62,772 nt of DNA, filler included, from Candidatus Fermentibacterota bacterium (GCA_016928395.1; 6 parts of 5 records of this genome joined end to end with filler, not necessarily neighbours in it); one strand, 5' to 3'. Shown: positions 15,701-62,639, counted from the first letter of the whole stretch. Program-made: numbers and translations. Notes: generated by a model not told the origin, from the sequence alone.

Positions 15701-15944
15701 CCCATGGTGTCGGCTCGTAGTCGTCGGTGCGAAAGACATGCGGCCCGTACGAGATCTCGGTTACGCAGATGTCCGAGTGCTGCAGAGCCGGCGGAATCGC
15801 CTGGGCCACGCCGGCGAAGGCCTCCTCGGGCGACGTGGTGGGGCAGTTGAGAAGTTCCTCGACCCGGTAGAGGCACCGCAATTCCTTTGCCCGCTCGTGC
15901 AGCGTGGAGAAAAGTGAGCCCGCAGCTCTGGTGGTCTTATCCAT
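12759..15944 (-). CDS. PEP-synthase/PPDK N-terminal (ATP-grasp) domain protein with N-terminal GAF-like module and C-terminal nucleotidyltransferase domain
   Basis: LHERAKELRCLY...FLREEVKLL N-module; LGGKTAGL, VRSSSLLED...FSGKYKS, GLGTRAVD, VDVEFA, LQCRP; GPGRWGS and SFGTHFF; C-terminal LGSTKNATAGPASDIDL (GS...DxD NTase motif). Confidence 0.85.
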   Translation of the reverse strand: MDKTTRAAGSLFSTLHERAKELRCLYRVEELLNCPTTSPEEAFAGVAQAIPPALQHSDICVTEISYGPHVFRTDDYEPTPWGFCADIRVQDAPVGKICVYYREERPQGDEGQFLREEVKLLRTIADRLGHYILHHRLRAMFETVRQEREQLIDTARPEWFMALELLRKTDPDLLTRISRKMINYLAWIGAAEARSLLQRYGVHEGESLFGETNQPQVLPDSDTVGSISEETFRVSTRYLTDHEILSSIEQWIQEDRSAGLVRTLQNVYAPLTDILDAMQKFRRMMPVGATLPTAAEKGVKVALIRRFFTEQLEYINIAKRFIEIEDFFELSERIIFPAGSYGRLGGKTAGLFLASRILKRMAPKNQGIGTVKTPRTWFVASDGILAFIGHNNLGDVYEQKYKEVDEVRREYPQLIQVFKHCYFPQELVKGLSQALDDLGEVPVIVRSSSLLEDRLGTAFSGKYKSLFIANQGPKEERLAALLDAVAEVYSSTFGPDPIEYRAERGLLDFNEEMGVMIQEVVGKRVGKYFLPAFAGVAFSRNEFRWSSRIKREDGLLRLVPGLGTRAVDRVGDDYPVLVAPSKPNLRVNVSVDEVIRYAPKKVDVINLEKNCFESLEIKQLLEECGHEYPALSSVFSVHSGGMLTRGVGLMTDFQRDDVVATFDTLVLGTPFVKQMAAILRTLDQALQAPVDVEFAHDGTDLYLLQCRPQASSGEDVAAEIPRGLPDEAILFTANRFVSNGRVPDLTHVVYVDPDKYGELAELADLCAVGEAVGRLNKILPRRKFVLIGPGRWGSRGDIKLGVRVTYSEINNTAMLIEVARKKGNYVPDVSFGTHFFQDLVEASIRYLPLYPDTDGTKFNEAFLLGSPNILAELLPEFAHLADTLRVIDVPRCTEGKVLRVLMNADQEEAIGCLAEPSVEMREVKSSERADVSCQQDGAENWRWRLRMAERIAAHTDPQRFGIRAMYILGSTKNATAGPASDIDLLIHFSGTPAQRQDLTLWLEGWSLCLGEINQGRTGCRSDGLLDVHIITDEDIAGGDSFAVKIGASTDAARELPMKGAK

Positions 15945-22646: not shown

Positions 22647-22746
22647 NNNNNNNNNNNNNNNNNNNNNNNNNNNNNNNNNNNNNNNNNNNNTTAATTAATT
22701 AANNNNNNNNNNNNNNNNNNNNNNNNNNNNNNNNNNNNNNNNNNNN
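22647..22746. other. Artificial contig spacer
   Basis: N-run with TTAATTAATTAA core (stops in all frames). Confidence 0.99.
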
Positions 22747-27807: not shown

Positions 27808-27907
27808 NNNNNNNNNNNNNNNNNNNNNNNNNNNNNNNNNNNNNNNNNNNNTTAATTAATTAANNNNNNNNNNNNNNNNNNNNNNNNNNNNNNNNNNNNN
27901 NNNNNNN
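27808..27907. other. Artificial contig spacer
   Basis: N-run with TTAATTAATTAA core. Confidence 0.99.
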
Positions 27908-34110: not shown

Positions 34111-35162
34111 TGTCGTTTGATGACATGGTTCAGGAGGCCAGTACGTGGCTCTGTCTCGATGGGCCGCAGTCAGACCGGGTCGTGTCCTCGAGGGCCCGCC
34201 TGGCCCGGAACATCTCGGCCCATCATTTCGCGCACAGAGCATCCAGCGAGAGCATGACCCGCATGACCCTCTCCATGGAAGGCGTGATGCAGCAGTTGCC
34301 CGGCCTGCAGCCCTGCTCTTTCCTCCGCCTTGCCGACATCAGCCCGCTGGATCGGGAGATCCTGGCGGAGCGTCACATGATCAGCCATTTTCCTCAAAGC
34401 GACACCGTGTCCAAGGCAGTAGCCTTCAGAGCAGACGAACGGGCCACTGTTCTGCTCAATGAAGAGGATCATCTCCGGATCTCAGGATTCGCTCCGGGGT
34501 TCGATCTCTGGGACGCGCTTCGCATGGCCAAGGAGGTGGAGTCGGAACTGGAATACTATGCCGATTTCGCATACTTGGAACAATGGGGGTATCTTACGGC
34601 GTGTCCCACCAATGTGGGGACCGGCCTCCGGGCATCGCTTCTTGTTCATCTTCCCGGGTTGGTGTTGACCCGCGAAGTGGGAAAGATGGTGAATGGGCTT
34701 TCTCAAATCGGTCTTGCCGTGCGGGGATTCAGAGGTGAAGGCAGTGAGGTGGTGGGGAATCTCTTCCAGGTATCCAATCAGGTCACCCTGGGGAAATCGG
34801 AGGAAGAGATAGTCGAGATGGTGTGCCAAGTAACGGCACAGGTCTTGCACTATGAAAACCAGGCTCGCGAAGTCTTAATGAGAGACGCGCGGTCTCAGGT
34901 CGAGGACAAAGTCTGGCGGGCGCTGGGCCTGCTGCGAACTGCTCGACTTCTGACTTCCGTCGAGGCGTTGGGCCTCGCCAGTGCCGTGCGACTGGGGACT
35001 GATCTGGGCATCCTTCAGGGCATCGCTGTGTCGGCCCTCAATGAGATGATTCAGCTTGCCCAGCCGGCCCACGTGCAGCGACGCGAAGGAGACGATGTGT
35101 CGTCGGAGGAGCGCGACGCCAGACGAGCAACCTGGGTCCGACGTCGGCTCATGATGGAGTAA
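34107..35162 (+). CDS. mcsB: Protein-arginine kinase McsB
   Basis: [51 protein letters not shown]. Confidence 0.95.
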
Positions 35163-35182
35163 TGCTGGATGAGGGAAGACCC

Positions 35183-37650
<2,468 letters not shown>

Positions 37651-37651
<1 letters not shown>

Positions 37652-39614
37652 TGCGCCGCATCGCGCTTGTGTGTCTTGTGGCTGTTGTGGCCAATGCCGA
37701 GCAGATCACCACTGACATCAGGGTACAGGGAGCGGCAACGTTGGACTCTTCATTCGTCCTCAGAACGGCGGGACTGCGTTCAGACGTACTCCATACCAGC
37801 ATGGATCTTGCCGACGCAGTGCGGCGGCTCTATCGCGCAGGCCTGGTGGACGATGTGCAGGTCTACAGCCGGCCTGCCGTCGGCGGAAGAGAGCTGACGC
37901 TTGCCATACGCGAGCGCCCACCCCTCGCGAGCGTTGAGTTCACAGGCAACAAGCGGATTTCGACCGACGACCTTCAGAAGAAGGTTCCCCTCATCAAGGG
38001 TCAGCGGGTGAGCCAGGCGCGCATCGAGAACTATGCAGCCCTCATTCGGCGAACCTACCGAGAAGAGGGCTATCTGAAGGCTCGGGTGGAGACCCAGATC
38101 GACTCCCTGGCTGCAGGCACAGCTGTTGTCTACCGCATAGAAGAAGGCCCCAAGGTGATCGTCCGCCAGATCCGCATTGAGGGCGCCGAGGCCATCGAAG
38201 CCAAGGCTGTCGCCAAGAGGATGAAGCTGAAGCCCAAGGGGTTCCTTCGCGGCGGCAAGTTCGACAGGGCGAAACTCGAGGAGAGCTTCGAGTCGATTGA
38301 GGCTTTCTATCGCGAGCGGGGATATCTGGACGCGGCGGTAGTCGATCACCGTGTGGAGTATCACGCCGACAGCAGTAGCGTAACGGTGGCCCTGGAGGTG
38401 GACGAGGGCCGCATGTTTCGGGTCGGATCGTTTGCTCTCACCTTTGACGACAGTCTCAGCTACTCCGAGGAGAGCCTTCTTGGCTTCATCAAGCTCAATC
38501 CCGGCGACCCTTTTAACTACGCACGGCTGGAGAAGGGCGTGCGCTCGATGTATGAACGATTCCAGGAGGACGGGTATCTCTGGGCTCGTGTCATTCCTGA
38601 TGAGCGGCGAACCGGCGATGTGGTAGACTATACCTTTGCCATACACCAGGGCCCACCCGCCATGGTGCGGCTCATTCGGATCGAAGGCAACACGACGACC
38701 AAAGAGAAGGTGATCCGGCGGGAGTTGCTCATCTACCCCGGCGATAGATTTCGTCGAAGCGCTTTGGTGAGGAGCCACCGGGAAGTGTACAATCTGGGCT
38801 TCTTCGAGGATGTCGCAGTGGACTTCGACAACCCCTCGACCGAGGGCGATGTCGATTTCGTCGTGAAGGTCAAGGAGAAGTCATCGGGGCAGTTCAACTT
38901 CGGCGTAACCTACTCCAGCCAGACCCGGCTCATGGGGTTTATTCAGCTCTCCCACCCCAATGTCTTGGGGAACGGATGGATCTCCAATTTGAGGTGGGAG
39001 TTCGGCAAGGCCAACCGCAACATAGAATTCGGCTTCACGGAGCCCTGGCTGCTTGGGACGCCAACCAGAGCGGGGTTTGATCTCTATAATACCGAGAGTA
39101 ACTACTATTATGCAGACTACTCAGTGGAACGACGGGGTGGTGGCATCAACGTGGGCCGACCATTGCCGTGGGTTGACTATGTCAGTGCCTCGTTCGCGTA
39201 CAGTCTCTCCGATGTTCGCGTCTCCCCCGACGATGACTATACGGGATCTGATCTCCCGGAGGGATGGCAGACGACGAGCCGAACCACGTATCGGGTCGTC
39301 CGGGACAGCAGGGACAACTTCCTCGAGCCGACGCGGGGATCGCGAAGCATTCTGACCATGGAGCTGGCCGGTCGGGTTTTCGGCGGCGATGTGGCCTATC
39401 GAAAACACGAGGTGCAGACCTCCTGGTTCACTCCGCTGGCGAGCAAACTCATCGCTTCGGTGAGTTTGAAGGCAGGCTCCGTGGTGGGATACCCGGGGAG
39501 GAGTGACGTGCCGGTGTACGAGCAATTCAGGCCAGGGGGCACGAGCACCGATGGAACCGTACGAGGATACGAGGACTACTCTCTGGGCCCGGTGGATGCC
39601 ACTGGCTACTACTC
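37651..39614 (+). CDS. bamA: Outer membrane protein assembly factor BamA; 3'-truncated
   Basis: Signal peptide, POTRA repeats (GNKRI, YREEGY, GNTTTKEKVIRREL, LGFFEDV), FTEPWL, RDSRDN, VRGY. Confidence 0.93.
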
Positions 39615-39714
39615 NNNNNNNNNNNNNNNNNNNNNNNNNNNNNNNNNNNNNNNNNNNNTTAATTAATTAANNNNNNNNNNNNNNNNNNNNNNNNNNNNNN
39701 NNNNNNNNNNNNNN
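39615..39714. other. Artificial contig spacer
   Basis: N-run with TTAATTAATTAA core. Confidence 0.99.
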
Positions 39715-39716
39715 CT

Positions 39717-41897
39717 TTCATGCAGGCGTTCAATACGGTTTTCCAACAGGGAGGGCCCATCATTGTCTCCAGCAGCAAGCCGCTGGCCTCCATGGAGCCT
39801 CTGTCGATGCGCGTCAGGGCCGCTCTGGGCATCTGTCGGCCTTTGACGCTGGTCGCGCCCAAGCAGGAAACCATCGTCACCATCGCATTCCGGGTGGCAG
39901 AGAAGGCCGGCGTGGAGTCCAAGGGAGTAAACTGGGGCGTTTTGGTGCAGGAAGCTGGCGGAGATCTCCGGCGAGTGCTTGAGGCGATTGGCGGCGGCAG
40001 ATCCGTTCGCGGTGCAGGCCGTGTCGCCGAGACTACGGTTACTGCTTTCGAGCCACGAGTCAGCCCCTCGGAAGAGTCCGGCGCCGCCCGAACAGCCGCG
40101 CTCTTACGCGAGGAGGCGGAAGCAATCATCAGCGAGGCAAGAACCGCCATCGATGAGATCGAGCAACGGCCTGGAGCTATCGACTCCGAGCTCCTGGATC
40201 GCGCCAAGGATGCTTTGGCGCAGGCGATTCGCGCGCGGGATTCCGGCGACTTCGATGCAAGTGAGCAACTAGGAATGGAGGCGCTGGAGAAGGCGGCGCT
40301 TGCCCACAGTCGGTCGGAGGGGACGATGGTCGCGAAGAGTCCGCCCGAGGCTGCGGCCACACCGAAGCAATCACAGCCGGTGCTGGCGCCCTACACCGAG
40401 CCGGAGGGTACTGATGAGCACGTGAAGGCATCGCTTCGGGAGGCTGAGAAGGCGATCCGAGATGCATGTGATGCCGGGGCTGAGGAATACGCTTCTCGCG
40501 AGCTGCGGATGGCCGTCAACGGGCTCGAGGAAGCGCGGCGGATAGCGGCGGATCCCGCGTTGCGTGCGCGGGCCGTTGACGAGGCCCGGCTGGCGGCGGA
40601 GCAGGCGTGGGATGCCGGACGAAGAGCCAAGACCAGAAAGGAAGAGGCTCGGATCAAGCAGGAGAAAGACAAGGTCCGCCGTTGTCAGATGGCAATTGAG
40701 GAGGTACGGAAAGAGCACGAGCGTCTTGCAGTGCATGAAGGTGATACACCCATCGTCGCCCAGCTTGAGGAAGTTGGGGTTTTTATCGACACGGCCGCGC
40801 AGTACCAGGAAGTCGGAAGCATAGGTCAGGCGCTGGAGCATGTGATGAAGGCCCGGAAGCGCCTCAACGAGATCTCAGATGAAGCGCGGCTTCGTCGTGA
40901 ACTTCGCGACATCATAAACGAAGTGGACGGTCTCGTCGGTGAGGCAGACAAGCGTGGCGAGACGCAGAGTCCTCAGCAACTGGTCGACATCCAGAACGCC
41001 TTGGCAGAAGCAGAGCGAGTGCTCATGGGTGACAGCGCCGACTATGAGCTGGGACTAAACTGGGCACGAGTCGCCCGACAGAAGGCCTTGAGACTGGCCG
41101 AAGGGGGCACCGATCGTCGATCGAAGGACGTCGGCAAGTCCAAGCGGCAGGATGGACCTGAGCTCACTTTCGATAGTCTCGAAGTGTGCGAGGGCAACCA
41201 GTTTGTCATCGCCATGGCCAGGACCGCAGCTGAGACACCTCACCTCGTCAAGAGCCCCCTCTACGTTTTTGGCGACGTCGGGGTGGGGAAGACCCACCTC
41301 TTATCTGCGATTCAAGATCTGGCCAAGAAGACGCATCCTGACAACTCCGTTGTTCTCACGACTGCAGCGGATTTCTCCGAAGACTACCGTGAGGCCCTTG
41401 CCCTGGGCAAGGCATCGTCCTTCAGGGAGGCCTACCGTGCCTCGGATCTGTTCATCCTCGATGACCTGCACCACATCGTAGCGAATCCCGATGGGATTCG
41501 CGAGTTCTTCCATACGTTGAGCGCCATCGAGGCATCAGGCGGTTTGGCCGTGGTATCGGCCGCCGTTCCCCCGCGGAAGCTGGGGATTGATGACAAGAGC
41601 TTTCGGTCGCGTCTCGAGGGTGGTGTGACAGCAGAGATGAAGTACCCCTCTCTGGAGGCGCGCGAACGCATACTCCGCCACGCGGCGAAGCGCTACGATT
41701 TGAAGATTCCTGATGAGGCCATTACTCTTCTGGCTACCATGATCACCAGCAATGTGCGGGAACTCCTCGGCGCGTTGGGCAAGGTCGCCGCGCATTCCCG
41801 CGCCGAGGGCGGCCAGGTCACTGGTGAGATCATGAGAAGGGTTCTTCAAGAGGTGCTTCCGGGGCCCAGTGAGGACGAAAAGTGGCTTCACTCATAG
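39717..41897 (+). CDS. Protein with two DnaA-type AAA+ modules (N-terminal degenerate, C-terminal near-intact) separated by DUF4398-like helical repeats; 5'-truncated
   Basis: N-terminal FMQAFNTVF...IIVSSSKP...GGDLRRVLEAI aligns to the second half of DnaA domain III; AEKAIRDACDAGAEEYASRELRMA repeat; C-terminal LTFDSLEV, PLYVFGDVGVGKTHLL, FILDD, RSRLEGG, SNVRELLGAL; ends without domain IV. Confidence 0.85.
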   Translation, partial: FMQAFNTVFQQGGPIIVSSSKPLASMEPLSMRVRAALGICRPLTLVAPKQETIVTIAFRVAEKAGVESKGVNWGVLVQEAGGDLRRVLEAIGGGRSVRGAGRVAETTVTAFEPRVSPSEESGAARTAALLREEAEAIISEARTAIDEIEQRPGAIDSELLDRAKDALAQAIRARDSGDFDASEQLGMEALEKAALAHSRSEGTMVAKSPPEAAATPKQSQPVLAPYTEPEGTDEHVKASLREAEKAIRDACDAGAEEYASRELRMAVNGLEEARRIAADPALRARAVDEARLAAEQAWDAGRRAKTRKEEARIKQEKDKVRRCQMAIEEVRKEHERLAVHEGDTPIVAQLEEVGVFIDTAAQYQEVGSIGQALEHVMKARKRLNEISDEARLRRELRDIINEVDGLVGEADKRGETQSPQQLVDIQNALAEAERVLMGDSADYELGLNWARVARQKALRLAEGGTDRRSKDVGKSKRQDGPELTFDSLEVCEGNQFVIAMARTAAETPHLVKSPLYVFGDVGVGKTHLLSAIQDLAKKTHPDNSVVLTTAADFSEDYREALALGKASSFREAYRASDLFILDDLHHIVANPDGIREFFHTLSAIEASGGLAVVSAAVPPRKLGIDDKSFRSRLEGGVTAEMKYPSLEARERILRHAAKRYDLKIPDEAITLLATMITSNVRELLGALGKVAAHSRAEGGQVTGEIMRRVLQEVLPGPSEDEKWLHS

Positions 41898-43150
41898 AAC
41901 TGCTCGTATCTCGACAGATGATCTCTTCCGAGCAGGCTCGTGAAGCGGCGGCTCTATCAGAAGAGACTGGGGCTTTCATAGGGCGAATCCTCGTTTCTCA
42001 GGGAGCAGTGGAGGAGCAAATGCTGGCTCGTTTTCTCGAGCGGGAATGCACCGAGAAGCCGGGGGCTCTGCACATCGAGGCAGACGCTCAGTTGATGCAG
42101 TTGCTCCCCGAGAGGCTCATGCGCACCTACCGCATGGTCCCCTTGGGAAGATCTCCCTCCGGCGTCCTGAAGCTCGCAGTATCGGAGCCGCTATCCATAG
42201 GCGGCATAGACCAGGTGAAGCGCCGGCTGGGAATGCCCGTCAGGCTGATTCTGGTGGATTCTGATACCATCGAGACGCTGCTGGGTGTGCCCGTGCAGTC
42301 CGTGGCGGTCCAGCCCCCGCTACCTCCAGAGCCTACCTCCGCATCGGTGAGCCTGGCTCCCTCGCGTCCTATTCACACTCCGTCTACCTCTGCTGCGTCC
42401 GCGGAGGGTTCTCTTGCACAGGATCAGGGCGCAGTGTTGCGGCCTCGAATGGTGCGCCAGCGGGTTGATGCTCCTGAGGACTGGCAGCCCGATCCCGTGC
42501 CGGGCGAGCTTCCTTCGGTCCTGGAGGAAGCCTTCAATGCGCTTCAGTCCGTCGTGGAAAGCAGCCAGCACGTGTTCTTAGTGGTCACTGGTCCGGATTC
42601 TGCGAGGGACCTAGTACTCAGGAAGCTGCGCACGGTCACATGGGGAGACCACGAGGCATTCTATCTGGATCTGATCGCCCATCATTTTCCTGCTGAGGTT
42701 GATCATCAGCGCAGAGTTCCTACCATACTGGACGGAGTTGACGTGGCCGGGATCGATGAGGAAGAGGAGCGGCGCCTTCTCCGTACCATCAGCGCAGCGT
42801 ATGCTGCCAAGACACCGCTGGTGCTTGGAATGAGGAAGAGCCCTAAGGAGTCCCAGAATTTGAGTGGAGGCCTGCGACTCACGCTTGGCCTGGCCAAGAT
42901 GGTGCCCATCGAGGTAGAGGAGACCGCGGAGAGATCCGCGTCTCCACCTGATTTTGAACAGCTATTCCTGGCCTTGGCCGATGAGACTGCGGCTTGGAGT
43001 GAGGCGGCATTTGCCGGGGCGAGTCTTCGTCCTCTGCTCCAGGCCGCTTCTCGAGCGTATACGAGGGGAAGCCGACAGGAGGCTCTCGGCAAGGCAGCAA
43101 CGGCCGTGGCCAGCCGCGTTTCTCATCTCACCGAGGAGCGGCTTGGCTGA
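41882..43150 (+). CDS. PilB/GspE N-terminal (MshEN/T2SSE_N) domain fused to a heavily degenerate DnaA-like AAA+ module
   Basis: LIELLVSRQMISSEQ...FIGRILVSQGAV, LLPERLMRTYRMVPL, LKLAVSEP; later FLVVTGPDSARDLVL (lost P-loop), TILDGVD, LLRTISAAYAAKTPLVLGMRKSPKESQNL. Confidence 0.7.
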   Translation: MASLIELLVSRQMISSEQAREAAALSEETGAFIGRILVSQGAVEEQMLARFLERECTEKPGALHIEADAQLMQLLPERLMRTYRMVPLGRSPSGVLKLAVSEPLSIGGIDQVKRRLGMPVRLILVDSDTIETLLGVPVQSVAVQPPLPPEPTSASVSLAPSRPIHTPSTSAASAEGSLAQDQGAVLRPRMVRQRVDAPEDWQPDPVPGELPSVLEEAFNALQSVVESSQHVFLVVTGPDSARDLVLRKLRTVTWGDHEAFYLDLIAHHFPAEVDHQRRVPTILDGVDVAGIDEEEERRLLRTISAAYAAKTPLVLGMRKSPKESQNLSGGLRLTLGLAKMVPIEVEETAERSASPPDFEQLFLALADETAAWSEAAFAGASLRPLLQAASRAYTRGSRQEALGKAATAVASRVSHLTEERLG

Positions 43151-44421
43151 TGCCAAGGCGGCGGAATACTCGTGCCGGGCTTGGAAGACGTTTCGGCCGA
43201 ACCCTGGTTCGATGGGGAGCAGTCACCGAAGCTCAGTTGAAGGAGGCCCTGACTCATCAGCACGAGCGCGGGGGTCTCATAGGCAGATGGCTTGTCGAAA
43301 CAGGTGCAGTGTCCCCAGGAAGAATGAGAGACCTCCTCGATCGGTTTCATCGGCGGCGGCATCTGTCGGTGGCTAATCTCCGCATCGACCGCGAAGTGCT
43401 GCGGGTTCTCACGAAAGATCTTGCGTGGGCATGGTGCGCACTACCGTTGGATATCTCAGATGGCGATCTCGTTGTCGCTGTCCCTGATGCTTCTGAGACC
43501 GAATGCGTCGCCACTCTCGCCGACGCAACCGGCATGACGATCCAGCCGGTCTCGTGTCCTGAAGACGAAATTGCTGAGGCCATCCGACGTCACTACGGAT
43601 CTCAGGGCGTGATCCCCGACGAGTGGTTGTTTGGATCGGCTCCTCTCTCGAAGTTTCGCTTCGAGACCTACGTGGTCGGCGAGGCGAATCGACGTGTGTA
43701 TGAGGCAGCCATGGCTGTTGCGGTGGCACCCGGGGTGCGACATAATCCGCTTTTCGTGTATGGGGAAGTAGGGCATGGCAAGACGCATCTTCTGAATGCC
43801 ATCGGCAATCGGATCAGAGAGGAGCGTCCCTCAAGCATAGTACTCTATCTCCCAGCAGTTCGTTTCGCTGATGAGCTCCTTCGTGCAATAGAGCATAACA
43901 GACTCGTGGAATTCCGGACGGTATACGCGCGTACGACGGTGCTTCTACTGGATGATGTGCAGTTCCTGGCCGATCAACGGGCCGTCCAAGAGGAGTTCGC
44001 GAACCTCTTCGAAGTGCTGCAGGCGAGGGGACGGCAGATCGTTATCACCAGTGATCGTGCTCCCGAGGAAGTACAGACCTTGGCGGATCGAGTTAAATCG
44101 GGACTTGGCGCTGGGCTCATTGTCGGCGTGGAAGTCCCCAGCATCGCGATGAAGGCTGCGATTCTCATGGAGAAGCGGCGTGAGCATAAGTGGGCCTTGC
44201 CCGATAATGTCATTACCCGCGTCGCGCACGAGTTTGACGGGGATGTGAGACGGCTAGAGGGGATACTCCGAACTGTATGCGCACGGATTGAACTTGACAG
44301 CGGCAGGCCGATGGACGAAATATTATCTTCTGTTCTTACAACTGTGCATTCAGATACAGGCGTCGCGGAACCGTGGGAGTCCGCCCCCGAGTTGCGGGCT
44401 CGAACACATCCAAACCGATAG
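43150..44421 (+). CDS. MshEN/T2SSE_N domain fused to DnaA-type AAA+ domain III
   Basis: RFGRTLVRWGAVTEAQLKEALTHQ / LIGRWLVETGAV; FRFETYVVGEAN, HNPLFVYGEVGHGKTHLL, LLLDD, ITSDR, GDVRRLEG; no domain IV. Confidence 0.88.
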   Translation: MPRRRNTRAGLGRRFGRTLVRWGAVTEAQLKEALTHQHERGGLIGRWLVETGAVSPGRMRDLLDRFHRRRHLSVANLRIDREVLRVLTKDLAWAWCALPLDISDGDLVVAVPDASETECVATLADATGMTIQPVSCPEDEIAEAIRRHYGSQGVIPDEWLFGSAPLSKFRFETYVVGEANRRVYEAAMAVAVAPGVRHNPLFVYGEVGHGKTHLLNAIGNRIREERPSSIVLYLPAVRFADELLRAIEHNRLVEFRTVYARTTVLLLDDVQFLADQRAVQEEFANLFEVLQARGRQIVITSDRAPEEVQTLADRVKSGLGAGLIVGVEVPSIAMKAAILMEKRREHKWALPDNVITRVAHEFDGDVRRLEGILRTVCARIELDSGRPMDEILSSVLTTVHSDTGVAEPWESAPELRARTHPNR

Positions 44422-47400
44422 GTGAGCACGATGGCGAAGCAGCAGCAACAGCGGCTCGGCGACCTACTCGTCGAACATAAGGTTATCACCAAGAAACAGC
44501 TGAAGCAGGCGCATGAGGAGCAGTCGCGTGACACTGAGGGTCGCCGATTGGGGAGAATCCTGATTGACCTTAACTTTATTGGTGAAGAGACTCTTATCAG
44601 TTTTCTTGCACGGCAGTGCGGAATGCCTCACCTACGTTTGGGTGATTACGAGATAGACAGTGAGGTAATAAAGTACGTATCTCCTGAACTTGTAACAAAG
44701 TATCAGGCTGTACCCATCGACAAACTTGGGAAAATACTCACTGTTGCCATGGTTGACCCTTTGGACGATGAGGCGCTTGACGGCCTGCAGAAGGCCACTG
44801 GCTTCGTGGTCAAGCCTATCGTGTGTTCAGAAAAGGACATCGAGGACGCAATTGATCGGTACTATGGTGCGGGAGTGCTTGAGGCCAGTAAGGAAAGCCG
44901 CAGGCGGGCGGTCGCTGAAGCGTCGGGTCGGCCCACGGCAGAGCAGGAACCGGTGGCAATCGAGGAGAGTCTGGATGGCCTCCGGCCTCTGAAGCCATAT
45001 ACCTTCGACGAGTTCGTCGTCGGTCACGCGAACCAGTTCACCTACGCGACGGCCAAGGCCGTTGCTGAGGCTCCCGCACAGGACTACAACCCTCTGTTCA
45101 TCTACAGCGGCGTTGGTCTCGGAAAGACCCACTTGGTCAATGCAATAGGCAACCACATCCTTGCCCGTGACCCAGGATCCCGCGTCATCTATCTCTCTTC
45201 GGAGCGATTCACTGCTGAACTAGTCAGTGCGATTCAGAGGAATGATATCAAGAGTTTTCGGCGACGCTACCGTGAAGTGGATGTTCTGCTTCTTGATGAC
45301 ATTCACTTTCTGGCGGGCAAGGAGCGTGCTCAGGAGGAGTTCTTCCACACGTTCAACGAACTCTACAATGCACACAAGCAAATCGTCACGACCAGTGATC
45401 GGCCACCCAAAAGCATGCTTACTTTGGAGAAGCGCCTTCGGAGTAGGTTCGAGGGCGGGATTATCACCGATATCCAGCCGCCCGAGTATGAAACGAGATT
45501 GGCGATACTCCACAAGAAGATGGAGCGGATGGGACAAAGTGTGGATCAGCCGGTGCTTGAGCTTCTGGCTGAGCGCATCACATCCAATATCCGAGAGCTG
45601 GAGGGCGCATTACGAGGGGTGATCGCGTCTGCAGAGGCTGCTGGCGAGTCTATTACCCGGCGTTACGCCGAGCGGGTCTTGGATGAGATTCTTGGCGAGA
45701 CAGAGGCTGCGTCCAGGCAGCGCGAAGTGGAAGAGGAAGTTGCTGAAATCATCACGAAGGCCAAGGCGCGGCTCCAGGATGTGGTTGATGCCGGGGTCGA
45801 AGCCGAACTGCCCGAGGGTGTTGAGAACGTTCGCTCTCAGCTTGAGGTGGCCAATCAGGCGCTACGAAGTGGTGATCTGAATGCGGCCCGGAGCGCCGCG
45901 ATGGAGGCACGGGAGCGAGCGGTGGCATTATTGCGGGAGCAAGAGGAAGGCCGGAAAGTCCGGGCGCGTGAACGGATCGAATCTGGGCTGAGGGAGAAGG
46001 TAGGCACTCTGCAGCAGCTAATCGATCAGGCCGCACAGGTCGGAGTCGGGGAAGAGGTTGTCCAGGGTTTCTCCTCGTCCCTCTTGAACTTCGAGGGAGA
46101 AATGGCCCGCGGCGGAGATCCTGTACCGCTGGAGGCTGAGGTTGGCAGACTCTTGAAACAGGTCGCGAAGGCAATCGAGGAGGCGAGTATGAGCTCCCGT
46201 GCCGCTGAAGATTCTCGCTCTTTGGACTGGGAAATCACCGGTGTGCAAGCCGAGATGGATCGTTTGGCAGCGGCTACCCAGGGTCGCCTTGGGGCGCAAG
46301 CTTCGGAGGCGGAGCGTCTCCTTCGGGAAGCTATCGGTCTGGTCCGGGCAGGAAAGCACACACAAGCCCGTGCTCTGGTGAAGCAGGCCAAGGAGATCGC
46401 GACTGCGCTCAAGGCTGCGGGTATCGAAGATGCAGAGGAGCCGCAGAAGCTTGATGCCGATCAGGCCGTGAAGAGCGCGGCGACTGCCATCGAGCGAGCG
46501 AAGGCGGAGGGTGCAGCGCAGCTTGCGGCCCAACCTCTTGAAGAGGCGGAGGATCTGGTCATCAACGCCGAGGCGATGCTTGAAGCTGAGGAGTTCGATG
46601 AAGCGCTCGCCTATGCTTTGCGGGCTGAGGAGGCAGCACTGCGGGCGTCGGCGTCGGCCATCGAGCAAAGAACAGCCATCAAGCGCCAGGAGACTGAGCA
46701 GAACCTCGCCAAGGCGGCGGAACTGGTGGCATTGGCGACCGAGAGCGGCGCCGAAGAGTACTCCCGTGAGGACCTCGACGCCATTACTGCCAGCCAGGTC
46801 GAGGCCAAAGCTGCTGTGGAGCAGGACCGGGTCATCGAGGCTTTCGACCTTAGTCAGTCTCTGCTCCGAGCTTCTCAGAAGCTGCTCAACGACACCAAGG
46901 CGCGAAAGACCGAATCCCTCCGAAAAGCCCTTGCCGATCGCCTTTCCCGTGCTGAAGAAACGATCGAGCGCGCCCGTGGCCGGGGCGCGGCAAAGTACTG
47001 CCCAAGTGATCTTGGTGACGTGGAGAAGCTCCTGGGAGACGGAAAGAAGCTTCTGAAAGCCGGTCAGTTTGAGAAGGGGCTGGAGGTCTCAGAGGAGATT
47101 CCTGCTCGTGTCGATGCCTTGGCGCAGAAGACAGAACAAGCGCGGGACGCGGAAGAGTCGCTTCGCAAGCGGAGCAAGGAGACACTTCGGGAGGCAGAGT
47201 CGATCCTGCAGGGGGCTCTTGCTGCGGGTGCACTTCGCTATGTACTGAAGACCTTCCAGGACGCGCAGGTTGCCCTTGCCCGGGCGGTTGAGCTTGTTGA
47301 GGGTGAGGATCCACAGAAAGCGTTCCAGGAGAGCCAGACGGTACTGTCACAAGCCCGGCGTGTGATCGAGTCTATCGAGGAGAAGAAACTCGAGGTCAAG

Positions 47401-48347
47401 CGGCAGGAACTCCAAACCGTCATCGAGGGCGCGAAGGCGAATCTAGAGAATGCCGTGAAGGAAGGGGCCGAGAAGTACGTACCCTCTCTGTTGGAGGAGG
47501 CTCGGAACTCTCTGGCTCTGCTTCAGACTGCATACGATGAAGCCAAGTATGACGATGGCCTTGCACTCAAGGGACAGCTTGTGGAACTGGTGCGACAGAC
47601 GCGTCAGGAATCCGAGCAGAGGCGTCTCCGGGAGGAGAGGACTAGGAATCGCTGCCAGCAGTTGCTGGGTACAGCCAAGGATCTCGTGTCTCAGTCGGAA
47701 GCCTTGGAGGCATCGCGGTACGCGGGTGCCCAGTTGAAGCAGGTGAGAGGGCAGATCGAGGACGTAACTCATCATCTCGATGAGGATAAGGTAGAGGAGG
47801 CGGAAACACTCGCTCAGGCAACGCTTTCCATGGCTGAGAATCTCTTGGCTGCCACGCAGGAGGAACGCGGCGCCGAGATGAAGCGCACACTCCAGGGCTA
47901 TGTCGAGACTCTCTCCGAGATGCTCAGCCTTACTCTGGAAACAGGCGGCCGTCGATACGCACCCGAGAAGGTGCAGCGCGCGGAGGCTCAACTGGGAGAG
48001 ATTCGGCAGAGCCTCGAATCTGGTGAGTATGAAGCTGGCCTCGAGGGAGCGGAGCCTCTGGAGGCTCTGCTGGTGCAGCTCCAGGACGAGACTGAGACCA
48101 AGCGGAAGGAAGAAGAGGAGCTGCGTCGAACAACCCGAGCGGCGCTGGACCGTTCCGAGGAACTTCTCGGTGAGGCCATAGCTATCGGTGCTGAGGAGTT
48201 CGCCGAGGAGTCTCTCAAGAACGTTCAGGCTCTCTTTAGCAGGGCTTCCGATGTCGGTCGAGGTGATGACACTCGGCGGGCCTTTGAGCTGTCACAGGGG
48301 GTTGTTGAACGGGCTGCCAAGTTGGTCGAGGAAGCGAGAGTACGGAA
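44422..48347 (+). CDS. MshEN/T2SSE_N domain + intact DnaA-type AAA+ domain III + long array of DUF4398-like helical repeats; 3'-truncated
   Basis: [17 protein letters not shown] / [93 protein letters not shown]; then about 9 repeats of A..I..A...GA..Y....L. Confidence 0.9.
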
Positions 48348-48447
48348 NNNNNNNNNNNNNNNNNNNNNNNNNNNNNNNNNNNNNNNNNNNNTTAATTAAT
48401 TAANNNNNNNNNNNNNNNNNNNNNNNNNNNNNNNNNNNNNNNNNNNN
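48348..48447. other. Artificial contig spacer
   Basis: N-run with TTAATTAATTAA core. Confidence 0.99.
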
Positions 48448-54021: not shown

Positions 54022-54121
54022 NNNNNNNNNNNNNNNNNNNNNNNNNNNNNNNNNNNNNNNNNNNNTTAATTAATTAANNNNNNNNNNNNNNNNNNNNNNN
54101 NNNNNNNNNNNNNNNNNNNNN
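54022..54121. other. Artificial contig spacer
   Basis: N-run with TTAATTAATTAA core. Confidence 0.99.
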
Positions 54122-55234: not shown

Positions 55235-55500
55235 GGGAGGCGCCTTGGCCTTGTACCCTCCCTCCACATGATCCCGAATCTGGTCCTCCGCCCACGACGG
55301 TAAGTCCATCAGCGCCAACTGCTCCTCCAGGTTCCCCTCGTCTATGTCATACACCCCCTTCCCCTGCGCAACCGCCAACTCCAGCACCTTCACCGTGCTC
55401 ACCTTGTACTTGGCCGTAAACACCTCATGCTCCCCCCACGCAACAGTCCACGCCAGCGTCGTGGCACCCCCGCGTATGCCCCAAGTCCCCTCCGGTGCGG
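55235..55500 (-). pseudogene. Fragment of a large secreted/polymorphic-toxin-type protein
   Basis: EHEVF...VSTVKVLELAVAQGKGVYDIDEGNLEEQL...IRDHVEGG resembles (from memory) a conserved module of large transglutaminase/Rhs-like proteins; it begins at an AWG motif like the other cassettes. Confidence 0.4.
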
Positions 55501-55528
55501 CGAGGCTCGCCACATCAGAATGCTTCTC

Positions 55529-55557
55529 TTGACATCAGGGGCCTAACCGGCAACATT
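55529..55557 (+). promoter_or_regulatory. Sigma70-like promoter for the AAA ATPase gene
   Basis: TTGACA - 17 bp - AACATT, about 50 bp before AGGAGA/GTG 55609. Confidence 0.45.
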
Positions 55558-55608
55558 CTTTTCCAGTTTTGCCTCGAAGCGGTAACATGCGTGACCAGGA
55601 GAGCGCCA

Positions 55609-56922
55609 GTGCTGGCAACCATCAAGTCCATCATCCTGGACTTCCAGGAGACCCGCCCCGAGACCGGCGTGCCACGCCGCCTCCAGATCGAGACGGTCCG
55701 CGGAAAGGCTGCCGTCCTCATCGGCGTTCGCCGCGGCGGCAAGTCGACATACCTGTTCCAGGTGATGCAACGGTTGTTGAAGCGCGGGGTCCCTCGACAG
55801 AACATCCTCTATCTGAACTTCTTCGACGACCGGCTCCACAACGTGCGAGCGCACAACCTCGGTCTCATTGCCGATGCCTACTTCTCCATCTATCCGATGA
55901 AGAAGAACGCCGAGACCGTCTACTGCTTCTTCGATGAGATTCAAACGGTCCCCGGCTGGGAGCCCTTTGTCGACCGTCTGATGCGCACCGAGAAATGCGA
56001 AGTGTATCTCACGGGCTCGTCAGCCAGGATGCTCTCCAAGGAGATTGCGACGCAGATGCGCGGGCGGGCGCTCTCGTGGGAAGTATTCCCGTTCTCCTTC
56101 CACGAGTTCCTGGACTACAGAGAAATCGAAGGTGATGGCGCACTCTCGACGAAACGACAACTCCTCGTCCGGAACGCGTTCGAGGAGTACTGGGAGACCG
56201 GAGGATTTCCCGAGGTTGCGGGCATGAGCCGCGTCGTAAGGATCAAGATCCACCAAGAGTACTTCCACACCATCCTATTCCGTGACCTGATCGAGCGCCA
56301 CGACATCTCCCACCCGAGGGCACTCACCGACCTGGCCCATCGCCTGGTGGACAACACCGCGTCGCTTTACTCCGTCAACAGCCTGACGGGGTACCTGAAG
56401 TCGCGTGGCCACAAGGTTCCCAAGTCCGCGGTGTCAGACTACCTTGAGTGGTTCGAGGATGCGTACTTCCTGTTCACCGTCCGGATCTTCGACGCGTCAC
56501 TGGCGCGCAGACATACCAACCCGAAACGGATCTACTGCATCGATCACGCGATGGTCTCCTCGGTGTCATCGGGAATCCTGGTCAACTCCGGGCATCTCCT
56601 GGAGAATCTCGTGTTCACGGCGCTTCGACGTCTTCACCCAGAGATCTACTACTACAAGACCCGGACAGGACGAGAGGTGGATTTCGTAATCCCAGTACGG
56701 GGCCAGCCGAAGATGCTGGTGCAGGCATGTGAGTCCATTGCGGAGCCGCGGACGCGGAAACGGGAGATGGCGGCCTTGAATGAGTCGATGGCCGAGCTGA
56801 ACCTGGCGACAGGGACCATCGTGACCCGGAACGAAGACGAACGAATCGATGTGGAAGCGGGGACCATTGAGGTGATTCCGGCCTGGCGATTCCTCCTGTC
56901 CCTCCCCGAATCTCCTGTCTGA
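55609..56922 (+). CDS. AAA+ ATPase with DUF4143 (AAA_14 family)
   Basis: GVRRGGKST, FFDEIQ, LTGSS, MRGR, FPFSFHE, GGFPE, YCID, LENLV, YYYKTRTGREVDF. Confidence 0.9.
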   Translation: MLATIKSIILDFQETRPETGVPRRLQIETVRGKAAVLIGVRRGGKSTYLFQVMQRLLKRGVPRQNILYLNFFDDRLHNVRAHNLGLIADAYFSIYPMKKNAETVYCFFDEIQTVPGWEPFVDRLMRTEKCEVYLTGSSARMLSKEIATQMRGRALSWEVFPFSFHEFLDYREIEGDGALSTKRQLLVRNAFEEYWETGGFPEVAGMSRVVRIKIHQEYFHTILFRDLIERHDISHPRALTDLAHRLVDNTASLYSVNSLTGYLKSRGHKVPKSAVSDYLEWFEDAYFLFTVRIFDASLARRHTNPKRIYCIDHAMVSSVSSGILVNSGHLLENLVFTALRRLHPEIYYYKTRTGREVDFVIPVRGQPKMLVQACESIAEPRTRKREMAALNESMAELNLATGTIVTRNEDERIDVEAGTIEVIPAWRFLLSLPESPV

Positions 56923-60222: not shown

Positions 60223-61728
60223 CTACGTGGTGTTGACGGCCGGGACGAAGGGGTTGCCCAGGAAGACTCGGCACAAGGCTTCCAGGGCGTTGAGGCCGTT
60301 CTTCCGCGCCGTCGAGACGTAGCCGCGGATACGGCAGAAGTCCACGAGGGCGTCAAAGCTTCGGAAGGTGCCGGAGATCTTCTGCCGCAGCTTCATCATC
60401 CGCAGATCGCGCTCCGAGAGGTTGTTGTCGAACGGGACCGAGAAGTCGCGCATGAAGGCGAGGATGCCGTCGGGGTGGTTCCGGAATCGGTCGAGCAGGT
60501 TGCGGGCTTTGCTCTGCTTGCGGCGTCCCCGGCGCGTGGGGCCAGCCGACGGTTCCATGAGCGGATTCTGCGCGTAGCCGGCTTCCACGATCTGCTGATA
60601 TCGCTTGAGGAACCAGTCGAGATCCTCAACCGGCAGGGCGGCGAGGCCCGCGTCGCGGGCGGTATCGGCCGCCGTCTTGATCGCCAGCAGATGGTCGATC
60701 ATGGTTTTGGCCCACGCCTGGCCTTGCTCCTCCCACAGGAAGATGAGTTCGCGCAGGAGGTGCGCGTTGCAGAAGGCGTGGTCGCAGTCGTACTTCAGGT
60801 AAGAGTCCCAGAAGTCGTGGACGGCGCGGCCCCGGAAATAGGGCAGGATGCCGGCGGCGTTCATGGCTTCGCACCCGCGCCGCGTGTGCGCGAAGTACCA
60901 GGTCAACCAGTGGGTCGAGACGGTGTGCAGCCAGTGCAGGCTGCCGGTAGCGCGCACGCCGGTCTCGTCAAAGCCTGCCACGTCGGCGGTGGCTGCCTGT
61001 GCGCGGATGAGTTCGTCGACCGGCTGCAGCCGCCGGGAGCACGCGGCGGAGAGGTTGGCCAGCGTTCCTTCACTGAACGTGGCGCAGGCAAAGAGGTCGC
61101 GCATGATCTCGGTCAGCCGATCGAAGGGCAGCAACTGGTACTCCTTGAGATAGACGGCCACGCTTTTGACGCGAAGGCCGTACTGCACGGGGGCCGCGGC
61201 CTCCGGCGGAAACGCGGCGCGGTTGACGCAGCCGCAGGTGCAGGTCTTGACTTCGGCCTGGTGCTCGGTGACCTCCAGCTTCGGCTCGGGCAGATCGAAG
61301 ACCTGTCGGCGTTCGACGCGGTCCGGGGCCTGTTGCGTCAAAGAGCGGCCACACCCCACGCAGCGTTCGACCGGGTGGCGCACCGTGCGATCCGGCTTTG
61401 CCACCATGCGCAGGGTCCGGCCCGGATGGCCGGGCTGGCCGCCGGTGGGCCGCTCGCTGGGCGGGCGCAGGCTCTTGGGCTTGGGTGTGCTTAGACCGTC
61501 GGAGGACGGCGGCTTACTGCTGTTGTGGGAGTCCTTCGCCACCTGCTCTTCCAACTGCCGCACCCGCCGTTCGCTGGCCTCGAGGCGTATCGTCAGATCC
61601 GGCACCTGCCGCTCCAGGGCGTGGATAGCACCAGCGGCGTCATGGAGTCGCGCGTCCATCTCCACTAGTACGCGCACGACGGTTTCCTCGCCGGCGCGAT
61701 AGATCGCCCGAGCCTCTTCCCGTGTCAT
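60223..61728 (-). CDS. IS66-family transposase (TnpC-type)
   Basis: NSSKPPSSD, GGQPGHPG, CVGCG...CTCG zinc finger, DETG, VHD, CNAHLLREL, FDNNLSERDLR. Confidence 0.93.
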   Translation of the reverse strand: MTREEARAIYRAGEETVVRVLVEMDARLHDAAGAIHALERQVPDLTIRLEASERRVRQLEEQVAKDSHNSSKPPSSDGLSTPKPKSLRPPSERPTGGQPGHPGRTLRMVAKPDRTVRHPVERCVGCGRSLTQQAPDRVERRQVFDLPEPKLEVTEHQAEVKTCTCGCVNRAAFPPEAAAPVQYGLRVKSVAVYLKEYQLLPFDRLTEIMRDLFACATFSEGTLANLSAACSRRLQPVDELIRAQAATADVAGFDETGVRATGSLHWLHTVSTHWLTWYFAHTRRGCEAMNAAGILPYFRGRAVHDFWDSYLKYDCDHAFCNAHLLRELIFLWEEQGQAWAKTMIDHLLAIKTAADTARDAGLAALPVEDLDWFLKRYQQIVEAGYAQNPLMEPSAGPTRRGRRKQSKARNLLDRFRNHPDGILAFMRDFSVPFDNNLSERDLRMMKLRQKISGTFRSFDALVDFCRIRGYVSTARKNGLNALEALCRVFLGNPFVPAVNTT

Positions 61729-62639
61729 CACCTGTCCGCCCTTCCTTCGGTTCGGGAGCAGGCGAATGCACACAACTCCCGCCGGAAGTCCGTGACGAGT
61801 GGGTACAGATACACGTCCTTGACCGCGGCGCGGATGCGATGCTCGCGGTCATTCCGGGTCCGGCCCTGTGTCGCGCCCAGCCGCAGCCAGTTGGCCGCCC
61901 GGTAGCAGGTTCCCTTGAAACGGTCGCGGTCCACGAACGTCTCCACCGCATGCACAGGATGCCCATACTTGGCCTGCCAGTCGGCGCGAATACGGCGGGC
62001 GATCAAGCCCAGCACATGACTCGCCAGATGCGGAACCTCAACCCACGGCAGGATCAGAAAGCGCGTGTTGTTGGTCAGCCCCTGCAGGTTGCGCGCCCGC
62101 GTGGCGCGATCCCACCCCAGGAAGGCGTCGCGTGGTGCGCACTTCCACGCCGCCGACCCGAACAGCAGAGAGGCCACCGGCTGGCCCAGGCGGTCACGCA
62201 CCAGATACCGGAGGTTCTCACCCACCGTGTTGCGGTGACCAAGGTAGTGGTAACGAGCCAGCAGACTGTTGAACAGCCGCAGGTCTTCCGAGCCGGGCGC
62301 GACGACGCTCACGGCCAGCGGCCGCACGTCGCGCAACGCGCGGCGAATCGGCTCGGTCGCATGCGCCACGACCGGCACGCGGCGATTGCGGAACCCGTTA
62401 GGTGAGGGGCTGCGACGCTTCGGCAGGTGGATGTGGCCGGATCGTTCCAGCTTCAGCAGCAGCGTGCGCGCCGCCATATCCTTGAGGCGGCCGTGTGCAG
62501 TCCGCCACTCCCAGAGACGACACAGCTCCTGGCTCAGTCGGCTTCTGCCCCACTCAGGATGTGCGGCCAGCAGATGCCGGATCTGATCGATCTCCTGGCC
62601 GCACAGATGGCGGCCTTGTAGCACCAGAGTAGAAGTCAT
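61728..62639 (-). CDS. DUF4338 (DruA-like) domain protein
   Basis: YHYLG, LRYLV, SAAWKCAPRDAFLGW, NNTRFLILPWV, DWQAKYG, ETFVD, GTCYRAANW; TGATG overlap with the transposase. Confidence 0.85.
   Translation of the reverse strand: MTSTLVLQGRHLCGQEIDQIRHLLAAHPEWGRSRLSQELCRLWEWRTAHGRLKDMAARTLLLKLERSGHIHLPKRRSPSPNGFRNRRVPVVAHATEPIRRALRDVRPLAVSVVAPGSEDLRLFNSLLARYHYLGHRNTVGENLRYLVRDRLGQPVASLLFGSAAWKCAPRDAFLGWDRATRARNLQGLTNNTRFLILPWVEVPHLASHVLGLIARRIRADWQAKYGHPVHAVETFVDRDRFKGTCYRAANWLRLGATQGRTRNDREHRIRAAVKDVYLYPLVTDFRRELCAFACSRTEGRADR

Follow-up and report, generated by a model that had tools for sequence, protein, structure and literature searches.

To our knowledge, the ATPase fold of DnaA is known almost only from DNA replication, namely from DnaA, Hda, DnaC/IstB and ORC. 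In spirals of the DnaA type, a subunit contributes its arginine finger to the ATP site of its neighbour and so completes it. Hda sets the precedent of a paralogue with domain III only that acts on DnaA. An 8,633-base contig of a Candidatus Fermentibacterota bacterium, which forms part of the 62,772-base stretch of DNA analysed here (the window), encodes four proteins, g1 to g4, in which modules of DnaA domain III (DnaA-III) are joined to MshEN domains. Most of a four-gene unit that is conserved in Fermentibacteria-like bacteria lies on this contig. The reading we prefer, and hold tentatively, is that g1-g4 form a hetero-oligomeric scaffold or regulator of a type IVa pilus machine that depends on ATP and on cyclic di-GMP (c-di-GMP).

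The MshEN domain is the N-terminal part of PilB, MshE and PilF and of receptors such as NfrB, with tandem motifs of the c-di-GMP type. Fusions of MshEN to 'ATPase, glycosyltransferase and other domains' are described in passages of PMC5013675. The T2SSE_N part of PilB-type ATPases is thought to engage the inner-membrane platform (according to PMC11656802). Cofactors of PilB are diverse and include sensors of c-di-GMP as well as proteins with long helical rods, for example FrzS (passages of PMC11580455 and PMC11656802). The MglA/MglB module of Myxococcus acts through SgmX, FrzS and SopA to bring PilB to the pilus machine, and PATAN proteins co-occur with SgmX (according to parts of PMC11580455). 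Neither 'AAA+' nor 'DnaA' occurs in a 2024 review of PilB cofactors. Genes for type IV pili are mentioned in the genome paper on Hyd24-12/Fermentibacteria, which names neither DnaA nor c-di-GMP. In agreement with a first, sequence-only reading of this DNA, which knew of no described system with this architecture, the literature searches found no description of an MshEN-DnaA-III protein; the supplementary architecture tables of PMC5013675 may list one.

A four-gene unit of MshEN heads and DnaA-III modules

The window consists of six contigs joined by five identical spacers. Adjacency across spacers is meaningless, because unrelated draft contigs were joined artificially. Positions 39715-48347 are exactly one whole contig. 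It is filled by four co-directional open reading frames, all on the plus strand, with the overlapping or abutting ends that the sequence-only reading had reported. The overlap of g1 and g2 has 16 nt and is identical in the window and in two relatives, L001 and L117. The g2 stop and the g3 start overlap in TGATG at 43150, and g4 starts one base after the end of g3 (44421/44422). The operon had been described as cut off at both ends. Reading frames g1 and g4 are indeed open, but the cuts are contig ends, and the neighbours in the window are not real ones. Window g1 lacks about 258 N-terminal residues, among them those of the MshEN head, and has only the second half of a degenerate DnaA-III module; it aligns from residue 259 of the 983-residue orthologue. 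Window g4 lacks about 685 residues which, judged from the orthologues, contain further repeats and a second complete DnaA-III module. For g2, a GTG start is likelier than the start of the public gene call (record P0126), which begins 46 codons later and yields 376 residues, because 11 orthologous clusters align with the longer form from residue 1, including the first MshEN helix. The proteins range from 422 residues (g2) to about 1990 residues (full-length g4).

The unit is complete in two relatives. L001 is a 35.7-kb contig of a Candidatus Fermentibacteria metagenome-assembled genome and was found in a scan of species-representative genomes (g3 64% identical). L117 was found in a metagenome scan (g3 56% identical). 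Both encode g1-g2-g3-g4 in the same order as the window, with identities to the window proteins of 56-57% for g1, 41-44% for g2, 56-64% for g3 and 63% for g4. Full-length g1 (983-984 residues) includes the MshEN head and a first, degenerate DnaA module (g1N) in addition to the module seen entire in the window (g1C). Full-length g4 (1987-1993 residues) has a second complete DnaA module (g4C) at about residues 1700-1931, besides the N-terminal one (g4N). This brings the complete unit to four MshEN heads and six DnaA-III modules.

Pfam detected Bac_DnaA in g1 (E 2e-30), g3 (E 1.5e-49) and g4 (E 1.3e-67). A hidden Markov model (HMM) built from the g3 family was used to place the modules. It located them at residues 1-99 (independent E-value, i-E, 0.002) and 481-709 of g1, 282-358 of g2 (i-E 0.03), 165-395 of g3 and 189-413 of g4, and these residues match all five coordinate ranges for which DnaA-III modules had been proposed. 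Three of the five window modules pass Pfam, one is a remnant cut by the contig end and one is a relic without P-loop. The orthologue of the remnant in a further relative, G002, is recognised by Pfam Bac_DnaA (E 5.6e-12). The best solved relative of g3 is domain III of Bacillus subtilis DnaA (8bv3, E 2e-53). Pfam gave no match of Bac_DnaA_C (PF08299) or DnaA_N in the four window proteins or the full-length orthologues, as expected from the earlier statement that DnaA domains I and IV are missing.

The g2 module is not detected by Pfam, but three other comparisons speak for it. The profiles of the g2 and g3 families align in hhalign with 94% probability (E 8e-8) over the head and the Walker B-to-box VII region. 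The AlphaFold model of g2 (mean predicted local distance difference test, pLDDT, 77.6) comprises an MshEN head, a disordered linker, a five-stranded alpha/beta domain and a helical lid. Its head matches PilF GSPII-B and MshE in Foldseek, and the best non-MshEN matches are Hda and DnaA structures with E 1e-5 to 2e-4 (Hda 3sc3, E 1.4e-5; DnaA 8btg, E 2.3e-5). In the Atlas, g2 is related to Bac_DnaA/Hda clusters with template modelling (TM) scores of 0.54-0.61; the feature score of 0.89 is a lead only. Because hhalign, AlphaFold/Foldseek and the Atlas agree, the module proposed for g2 is, by profile and predicted fold, real but degenerate, a DnaA/Hda-like relic.

MshEN N-termini had been claimed for three genes. 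Pfam MshEN (PF05157) exceeds the cut-off in precisely these, g2 (2e-12), g3 (2e-15) and g4 (4e-20), and the g1 orthologues also have the head (30-40 bits). The T2SSE_N part is kept in all four heads. The T2SSE ATPase domain (PF00437) was not found by Pfam in g1-g4, neither in the window proteins nor in the full-length orthologues; it is present in the neighbouring PilB and PilT of the relatives. Unlike in PilB-type ATPases and the known MshEN receptors, the output domain is a DnaA-type AAA+ instead of a T2SSE/PilT-class ATPase or glycosyltransferase, and four MshEN proteins are encoded in a row. Unlike in DnaA, with which the AAA+ module is colinear from box II to the lid, domains I, II and IV are missing and an MshEN head stands in place of domains I-II.

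DUF4398-like repeats had been noted in two genes. In g1, they are called by Pfam (PF14346, E 8.6e-9, 36.2 bits versus a cut-off of 27.9), but in g4 Pfam calls no DUF4398 and the repeats are visible only with an HMM iterated from a g1 repeat. This HMM finds four units in g1, ten in the sequenced part of g4 (i-E 1e-3 to 3e-21) and 13-14 in full-length g4, back to back with a period of about 78-80 residues. A model of g4 residues 832-1308 is all helix (pLDDT 92.4). In this model, each unit has two helices of about 20 residues and one of about 50 residues that continues into the next unit. A Foldseek comparison with the PDB had no match at E <= 0.001, the weak rows being designed helical proteins, vinculin and EzrA, so that the term 'spectrin-like' refers to the predicted helix pattern. 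Tandem Repeats Finder detected no DNA repeats in the contig. The protein repeats of g1 and g4 are old and diverged.

ATP sites, c-di-GMP motifs and descent of the modules

For residue comparison, the modules were aligned to E. coli DnaA. The roles of its residues, other than V211 and R245, are those generally ascribed to them. V211 and R245 are needed for binding of single-stranded DNA (ssDNA), according to passages of PMC9198467. Modules g4N and g4C keep K178, T179, V211, D235, D236, R245, D269, R281, R285 and R334, thus Walker A/B, sensors I and II, R281/R285 of box VII and the H/B positions; one g4C has a lysine at 285. Module g1C keeps Walker A/B, the arginine finger R285 and the sensor II residue R334, with V211, R245, D269 and R281 changed and the sensor-I TSDR and the H/B-motif residues replaced. 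In g3, Walker A/B and sensors I and II are intact and position 245 is alanine. Its finger position 285 is glycine in the window and L001 and arginine in L117; over 15 clusters of the g3 family it is G, D, S or R. Module g1N keeps Walker A and has serine or alanine at 285 in the orthologues. Its Walker B DD is changed to DG in L117, the one full-length orthologue aligned there, and G002 keeps DD. The g2 module has no Walker A, IDG at Walker B and no finger. By this alignment, the modules have lost different, complementary elements of the ATP site: the set is complete in two or three of them, the finger is missing from two and Walker A from one.

An ordered hetero-oligomer fits because of this complementary loss, the translational coupling and the tiny g2 family. 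The latter has 12 clusters at E <= 1e-5, among 8,000 word-sharing candidates scored from a database of 5.8 billion proteins, and in 8 of the 12 the longest contig is equal in size to that of a g3 cluster. A finger-less g3 that faces a site-less g2 could make sense as a 'dead' interface, with the live ones closed by the complete modules. A complex prediction of the g3 AAA+ (160-423) with the g2 relic (186-422) gave a score of 0.00 and a mark of 0.32 in a run without controls and is neutral on binding. The hetero-oligomer suggested earlier is thus backed by gene coupling and complementary ATP sites, but as an assembly it is a proposal. The logic recalls ORC/Cdc6 and RFC, which also combine complete, finger-less and site-less paralogous AAA+ subunits, and RFC and ORC are among the fold matches of g2. 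The likeness is one of logic only; the putative g1-g4 assembly differs by having no DNA-binding domain.

The c-di-GMP motifs vary among the four heads. In the MshEN reference, a 24-residue motif, RLGxx hh xx G hh xxxx L xxx L xx Q, occurs twice, and 5 residues separate the copies. The model for the MshE-type c-di-GMP motif (NF053729, cut-off 38) scored 38.5 bits for g2, 46.8 bits for g3 and highest for g4 (Table 1). In g3, motif 1 fits the published relaxed pattern, motif 2 fits only a looser in-house pattern, and the spacer has 5 residues. The g4 motifs have lysine or asparagine at position 10 and a 7-residue spacer, and both fit only the looser in-house pattern. The g4 head and the MshEN head of PilB in the relative's cluster share 38.5% identity over 148 residues. 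In g2, motif 1 is degenerate and the second motif is kept; in the g1 orthologues both motifs are degenerate. With the heads in this state, c-di-GMP binding is expected for g3 and g4 at most. Gating by c-di-GMP, as the sequence-only reading had it, is plausible for the g3 and g4 heads and doubtful for those of g1 and g2.

All four genes are, by their substitution pattern, under purifying selection. The proportion of nonsynonymous differences (pN) is 0.20-0.41, versus a saturated synonymous proportion (pS) of 0.74-0.85, whichever of the four genes and of the three pairs is taken. The only finite dN/dS is 0.09, for g3 of the window and L001; otherwise the ratio is inestimable, because synonymous sites are saturated. 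A tree was built from 45 modules. Three g1N, the window g1N remnant and three g2 relics were left out (below 80 bits with the module HMM), as were the L014 fragment and L020, L026 and L053, for which ORF picking gave no usable module. The canonical DnaAs of nine lineages, including the 477-residue DnaA of the relative, form one group (95/89). The g3 modules group with single-gene MshEN paralogues (99/96) and then with receiver-headed paralogues (100/97). Modules g4N, g4C and g1C each form separate, deep and well-supported groups with short internal branches. A separate canonical dnaA had been named as a point to confirm, and the 477-residue DnaA with domain IV is encoded on another contig of the relative's genome, G001, where it is the only strong PF08299 match. 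Conserved orthologues, a pN far below pS and deep clades outside canonical DnaA agree with the proposal that the initiator ATPase was duplicated and co-opted and is not decaying.

Pilus-cluster context and possible function

In the relatives, the unit is located in a pilus gene cluster. In L001 together with L108, the remainder of its contig, a beta-helix protein, a pilin-like protein and the prepilin peptidase PilD precede g1-g4. After g4 follow a TonB_C protein, PilB with MshEN and T2SSE, a hypothetical protein, PilT, PilC, a PilS-type kinase, a second PilT-like ATPase and a PilR-type sigma-54 activator. The gene order of L117 is identical between the beta-helix protein and PilB, at which the locus ends. 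A 'pilus-linked' machine had been one of several options named beforehand. The position of the block between pilD and tonB-like/pilB in two complete relatives gives it strong contextual support. The genes are not beside dnaN, unlike dnaA. In G002, the beta-helix protein, pilin-like protein, PilD and g1 are present before the contig stops inside g1. Judged by ClpC, G002, a second genome from this small group, is closer to the window (88%) than G001 (75%). For the window organism, the pilus context is extrapolated from these relatives, because its contig breaks off within both g1 and g4 and pilus genes are absent from the other contigs.

In the TonB_C protein, a basic stretch in the cytoplasm and a proline-rich one come before a single membrane span, which is followed by two DUF4398-like repeats and TonB_C. 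Its repeats are of the same DUF4398-like type as the cytoplasmic rods of g1 and g4.

The DNA itself was recovered elsewhere. A near-identical 18.8-kb contig, found in DNA run X1, extends 10.2 kb upstream of 39715. Near-identical DNA is present in one sediment-metagenome run, possibly the source of the window DNA, and short pieces with 90-100% identity occur in two further sediment-metagenome studies. The window contig and the independent X1 assembly of a near-identical strain both stop in the g4 repeat region (window 48224-48347). Stretches of the contig that lack coverage in runs X2-X4, and the small word shares of these runs, were given no weight. A depth spike at 45187-45474 corresponds to a conserved Walker B/box VI stretch common to the dnaA of other organisms. 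One metatranscriptome library has five contigs for g1, g4 and the junction of g3 and g4, a hint of expression; three contain no differences, and the junction contig covers 90 and 61 bases on either side.

For the pilus-associated hetero-oligomer that we prefer, the following mechanism may be envisaged. The g1-g4 proteins would co-assemble, driven by ATP, into a defined DnaA-like spiral. Modules g4N, g4C and g1C would donate arginine fingers, g3 and g1N would bind ATP without donating a finger, and the P-loop-less g2 module would act as a dead interface or cap. Binding of c-di-GMP to the g3 and g4 heads would tune assembly, and the assembly would license, position or scaffold pilus extension. 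We infer c-di-GMP binding, co-assembly, docking and an effect on pili; domain content, gene coupling, conservation, the synteny in relatives and the pattern of motif loss are observations. The proteins would then control PilB in this lineage as FimX-PilZ and MglA/SgmX/FrzS/SopA do in others. These are likewise cytoplasmic regulators encoded or acting at the type IVa pilus base, but they have no sequence relation to g1-g4, and none is described as an AAA+ ATPase in the relevant passages of the sources.

Several observations weigh against the pilus assignment. Contacts of g1-g4 with each other, with PilB or with the platform are hypothetical. A role of c-di-GMP is doubtful for the g1 and g2 heads with their degenerate first motif. 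The other window contigs have no pilus genes, and the pilus context is seen only in relatives. Protein queries did not find orthologues of g2-g4 in G002; this is not evidence of absence, because the G002 contig ends inside g1. At three of the five single-gene paralogue loci with neighbours read (L122, G002:C7 and G001:C283), the adjacent genes are unrelated and encode an OPT transporter, a subtilase, an extracytoplasmic function (ECF) sigma factor and NikR. The matching contigs of the RNA library can stem from DNA carry-over. Finally, none of the DnaA-specific residues checked is lost from g4N or g4C, the H/B positions for ssDNA binding included, and a role directed at DNA or DnaA would explain this at least equally well.

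One role of this kind would be that of Hda-like regulators of initiation, which dock on ATP-DnaA oligomers through their AAA+ faces, insert a finger that triggers hydrolysis or cap the filament, and couple initiation to c-di-GMP and surface life. The sequence of g4 exceeds the cut-off of the DnaA equivalog model TIGR00362 without having a domain IV (348.7 versus 343.9), and g4N is 49% identical to the AAA+ of the canonical DnaA of G002. The arginine finger is kept by g4N, g4C and g1C, the R281 position by g4N and g4C. Hda, itself a domain-III-only paralogue of DnaA, is the precedent, and the g2 relic has its best AAA+ fold matches with Hda (3sc3, 3bos, 5x06) and with Hda clusters in the Atlas. 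We nevertheless regard such regulators as improbable here. The block is conserved in a pilus cluster and not beside dnaA/dnaN. Scores with the Hda model TIGR03420 are far below the cut-off (79-87.5 versus 194.8 bits), and the N-termini are MshEN domains instead of a short clamp-binding tail. The proteins are much larger than Hda, an Hda-like action would need neither six distinct modules nor rods of about 1,250 residues, and several paralogues lack the finger that Hda action requires.

A DNA-directed role could also be that of an accessory to DNA uptake, in which the complete g4 modules form a DnaA-like spiral on incoming ssDNA at the pilus base. The location in a type IVa pilus cluster of the relatives suits this idea. 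Thermus PilF, a DNA-uptake ATPase, also carries MshEN/GSPII heads. Both g4 modules retain the counterparts of V211 and R245, which DnaA needs for ssDNA binding (as stated in passages of PMC9198467). However, no comEA, comEC or dprA-type gene was seen in the 35.7-kb contig of the relative. The R245 position is lost in g3 and g1C, and in g1C the V211 position as well. The single-gene paralogues associate with polarity modules and not with DNA genes. We consider DNA uptake improbable too.

Paralogues, wider family and other contigs

The relatives encode many DnaA-III proteins. Bac_DnaA has 12 matches in G001 and 10 in G002. A phylum-level genome search around G001 reached 2 genomes only. In a 100-genome sample, most of which appear to belong to other phyla and which serves as a contrast and not as a phylogenetic survey, only G001 and G002 exceed three Bac_DnaA matches, and only they have MshEN-DnaA fusions (3 matches). 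The extra copies comprise four proteins with a receiver domain (REC), DnaA-III and a C-terminal domain of about 230 residues, one with REC and DnaA-III, one with a REC-like domain, DnaA-III and a basic tail, and one with MshEN and DnaA-III. No arginine finger is present in any REC-headed paralogue checked. Their architecture suggests that DnaA-III is an output of two-component signalling in this lineage. One further DnaA-III match (G032:C3:230674-231327) lies in a 2164-residue open frame of an unrelated genome and may be part of a long fusion.

Two of the five single-gene MshEN-DnaA-III loci, L119 and L121, adjoin Roadblock and PATAN genes, and L119 also a GTPase gene (Table 1). This speaks for a link to motility, since MglA/MglB-type modules control the polar recruitment of PilB in Myxococcus and PATAN proteins co-occur with SgmX (PMC11580455).

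Another explanation would be separate c-di-GMP/ATP switches that merely share an operon, members of a lineage-wide expansion with DnaA-III as generic signalling output, the proteins acting as homo-oligomers or alone on different targets, without a joint machine. The six REC-headed paralogues and the extra MshEN-headed one in G001, the ten Bac_DnaA matches in G002 and the lone MshEN-DnaA-III genes in varied contexts all agree with it, and the module types are deep paralogues and not recent copies. Separate switches are unlikely in view of the invariant 16-nt overlap of g1 and g2 and of a g1-g2-g3-g4 order that is fixed in three lineages. The g2 protein has neither P-loop nor finger yet is under purifying selection, which is hard to explain for a stand-alone ATPase. 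Judging by the matching contig sizes, the g2 family occurs only with g3 partners.

An exhaustive profile search yielded 37,555 matches. Among the best 150 representatives, 12 are MshEN+DnaA-III proteins of about 340-1,990 residues; ten of ten checked with Pfam have both domains, and the other two were assigned by precomputed Pfam. The rest of the best 150 are mostly tandem DnaA-III proteins. A large tandem DnaA-III family of about 560-700 residues is named in Gemmatimonadota (P0021, P0023, P0026, P0027, P0036, P0051; L060; L079). Like g1 and g4, these proteins, annotated 'DnaA/Hda family' or 'chromosomal replication initiator', have two modules, a helical linker and no domain IV (8/8 examined). 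They differ in having no MshEN head and a linker of about 130-170 residues instead of a repeat rod.

Apart from one 'ATP-binding protein [candidate division WOR-3 bacterium]', the only recorded name is 'chromosomal replication initiator protein', assigned automatically. Annotation pipelines name genes of the g1-g4 type and tandem DnaA-III genes 'chromosomal replication initiator protein DnaA', which inflates dnaA counts in metagenome-assembled genomes.

The pilus reading can be extended to a more general one. The AAA+ spiral of the initiator may have been re-used as a general switchable assembly module of signalling, with MshEN or receiver heads. In the unit described here, an ORC-like ordered hetero-oligomer would arise from six modules on four chains at the type IVa pilus base, with the g1 and g4 rods as tethers, and would decide when and where PilB engages. 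This extension is less likely than not. If true, it would be a pilus control and a use of the initiator fold without described counterpart, and a natural example of an initiator spiral away from origins. The series of complete, finger-less and P-loop-less modules could show how hetero-oligomers evolve. MshEN with initiator AAA+ would be a new receptor-output pair and a new candidate class of PilB cofactors in uncultured phyla. An anti-phage defence reading was dropped; PADLOC gave only weak AAA-level matches (mad8 6e-6 and 1.4e-4, TRIP13 8e-4).

Table 1. Features of the g1-g4 contig, of related loci and of the other window contigs. Positions are those of the window unless a locus or contig is named.
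Feature	Position	Strand	Description
g1	39717-41897	+	5' end cut by contig end; Bac_DnaA and DUF4398 matches
g1N remnant (box VI to lid)	39717..40013	+	i-E 0.0023 in window, 3.4e-7 in L117, 5.7e-14 in G002
g1 repeats	40101..41123	+	four DUF4398-like helical repeats of ~78 residues
g1C DnaA-III module	41157..41843	+	Pfam, module HMM, motif table
g2	41882-43150	+	MshEN head, residues 1-134; disordered linker 139-185; P-loop-less DnaA/Hda-like AAA+ relic with lid ~190-422
g3	43150-44421	+	MshEN head, residues 14-153; DnaA-III module 165-395
g4	44422-48347	+	3' end cut by contig end; MshEN head, DnaA-III module, repeats
g4 MshEN head	44452..44871	+	two RLG...Q motifs; NF053729 60.4 bits versus cut-off 38
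g4N DnaA-III module	44986..45660	+	Bac_DnaA 227 bits; all ten checked positions kept
g4 repeats	45724..48345	+	ten consecutive DUF4398-like repeats of ~78 residues, iterated HMM
TonB_C gene between g4 and pilB	L001 15978-17432; L117 16754-18274		bitopic; repeats after membrane span
Single-gene paralogue locus	L119 7083-11197		adjoins Roadblock/LC7 and PATAN (DUF4388) genes and Ras/Arf-like GTPase; cNMP-GGDEF gene 4 kb downstream
Single-gene paralogue locus	L121 342-6935		adjoins two Roadblock genes and PATAN gene; then 1091-residue protein without Pfam match
Six REC-headed DnaA-III paralogues	G001 contigs C116, C65, C291, C253, C200, C160		loci L085-L087, L089-L091
Spacers N44-TTAATTAATTAA-N44	22647-22746, 27808-27907, 39615-39714, 48348-48447, 54022-54121		five, identical
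Lhr-type large helicase	3277-7746	-	1489 residues
Two adjacent PPDK_N-domain proteins	12759-17670	-	1061 and 577 residues
AAA_14/DUF4143 ATPase	55495-56922	+	
IS66-family transposase	60223-61773	-	

On the contig that precedes g1 in the window (35162-39614), a ClpC-type Clp ATPase of 829 residues is followed by a BamA-like outer-membrane protein, with stop and start overlapping and the latter gene cut by the contig end. ClpC and BamA are not true neighbours of g1, because a spacer separates the contigs. A gene similar to the AAA_14/DUF4143 gene of the window is also located on the pilus contig of the relative.

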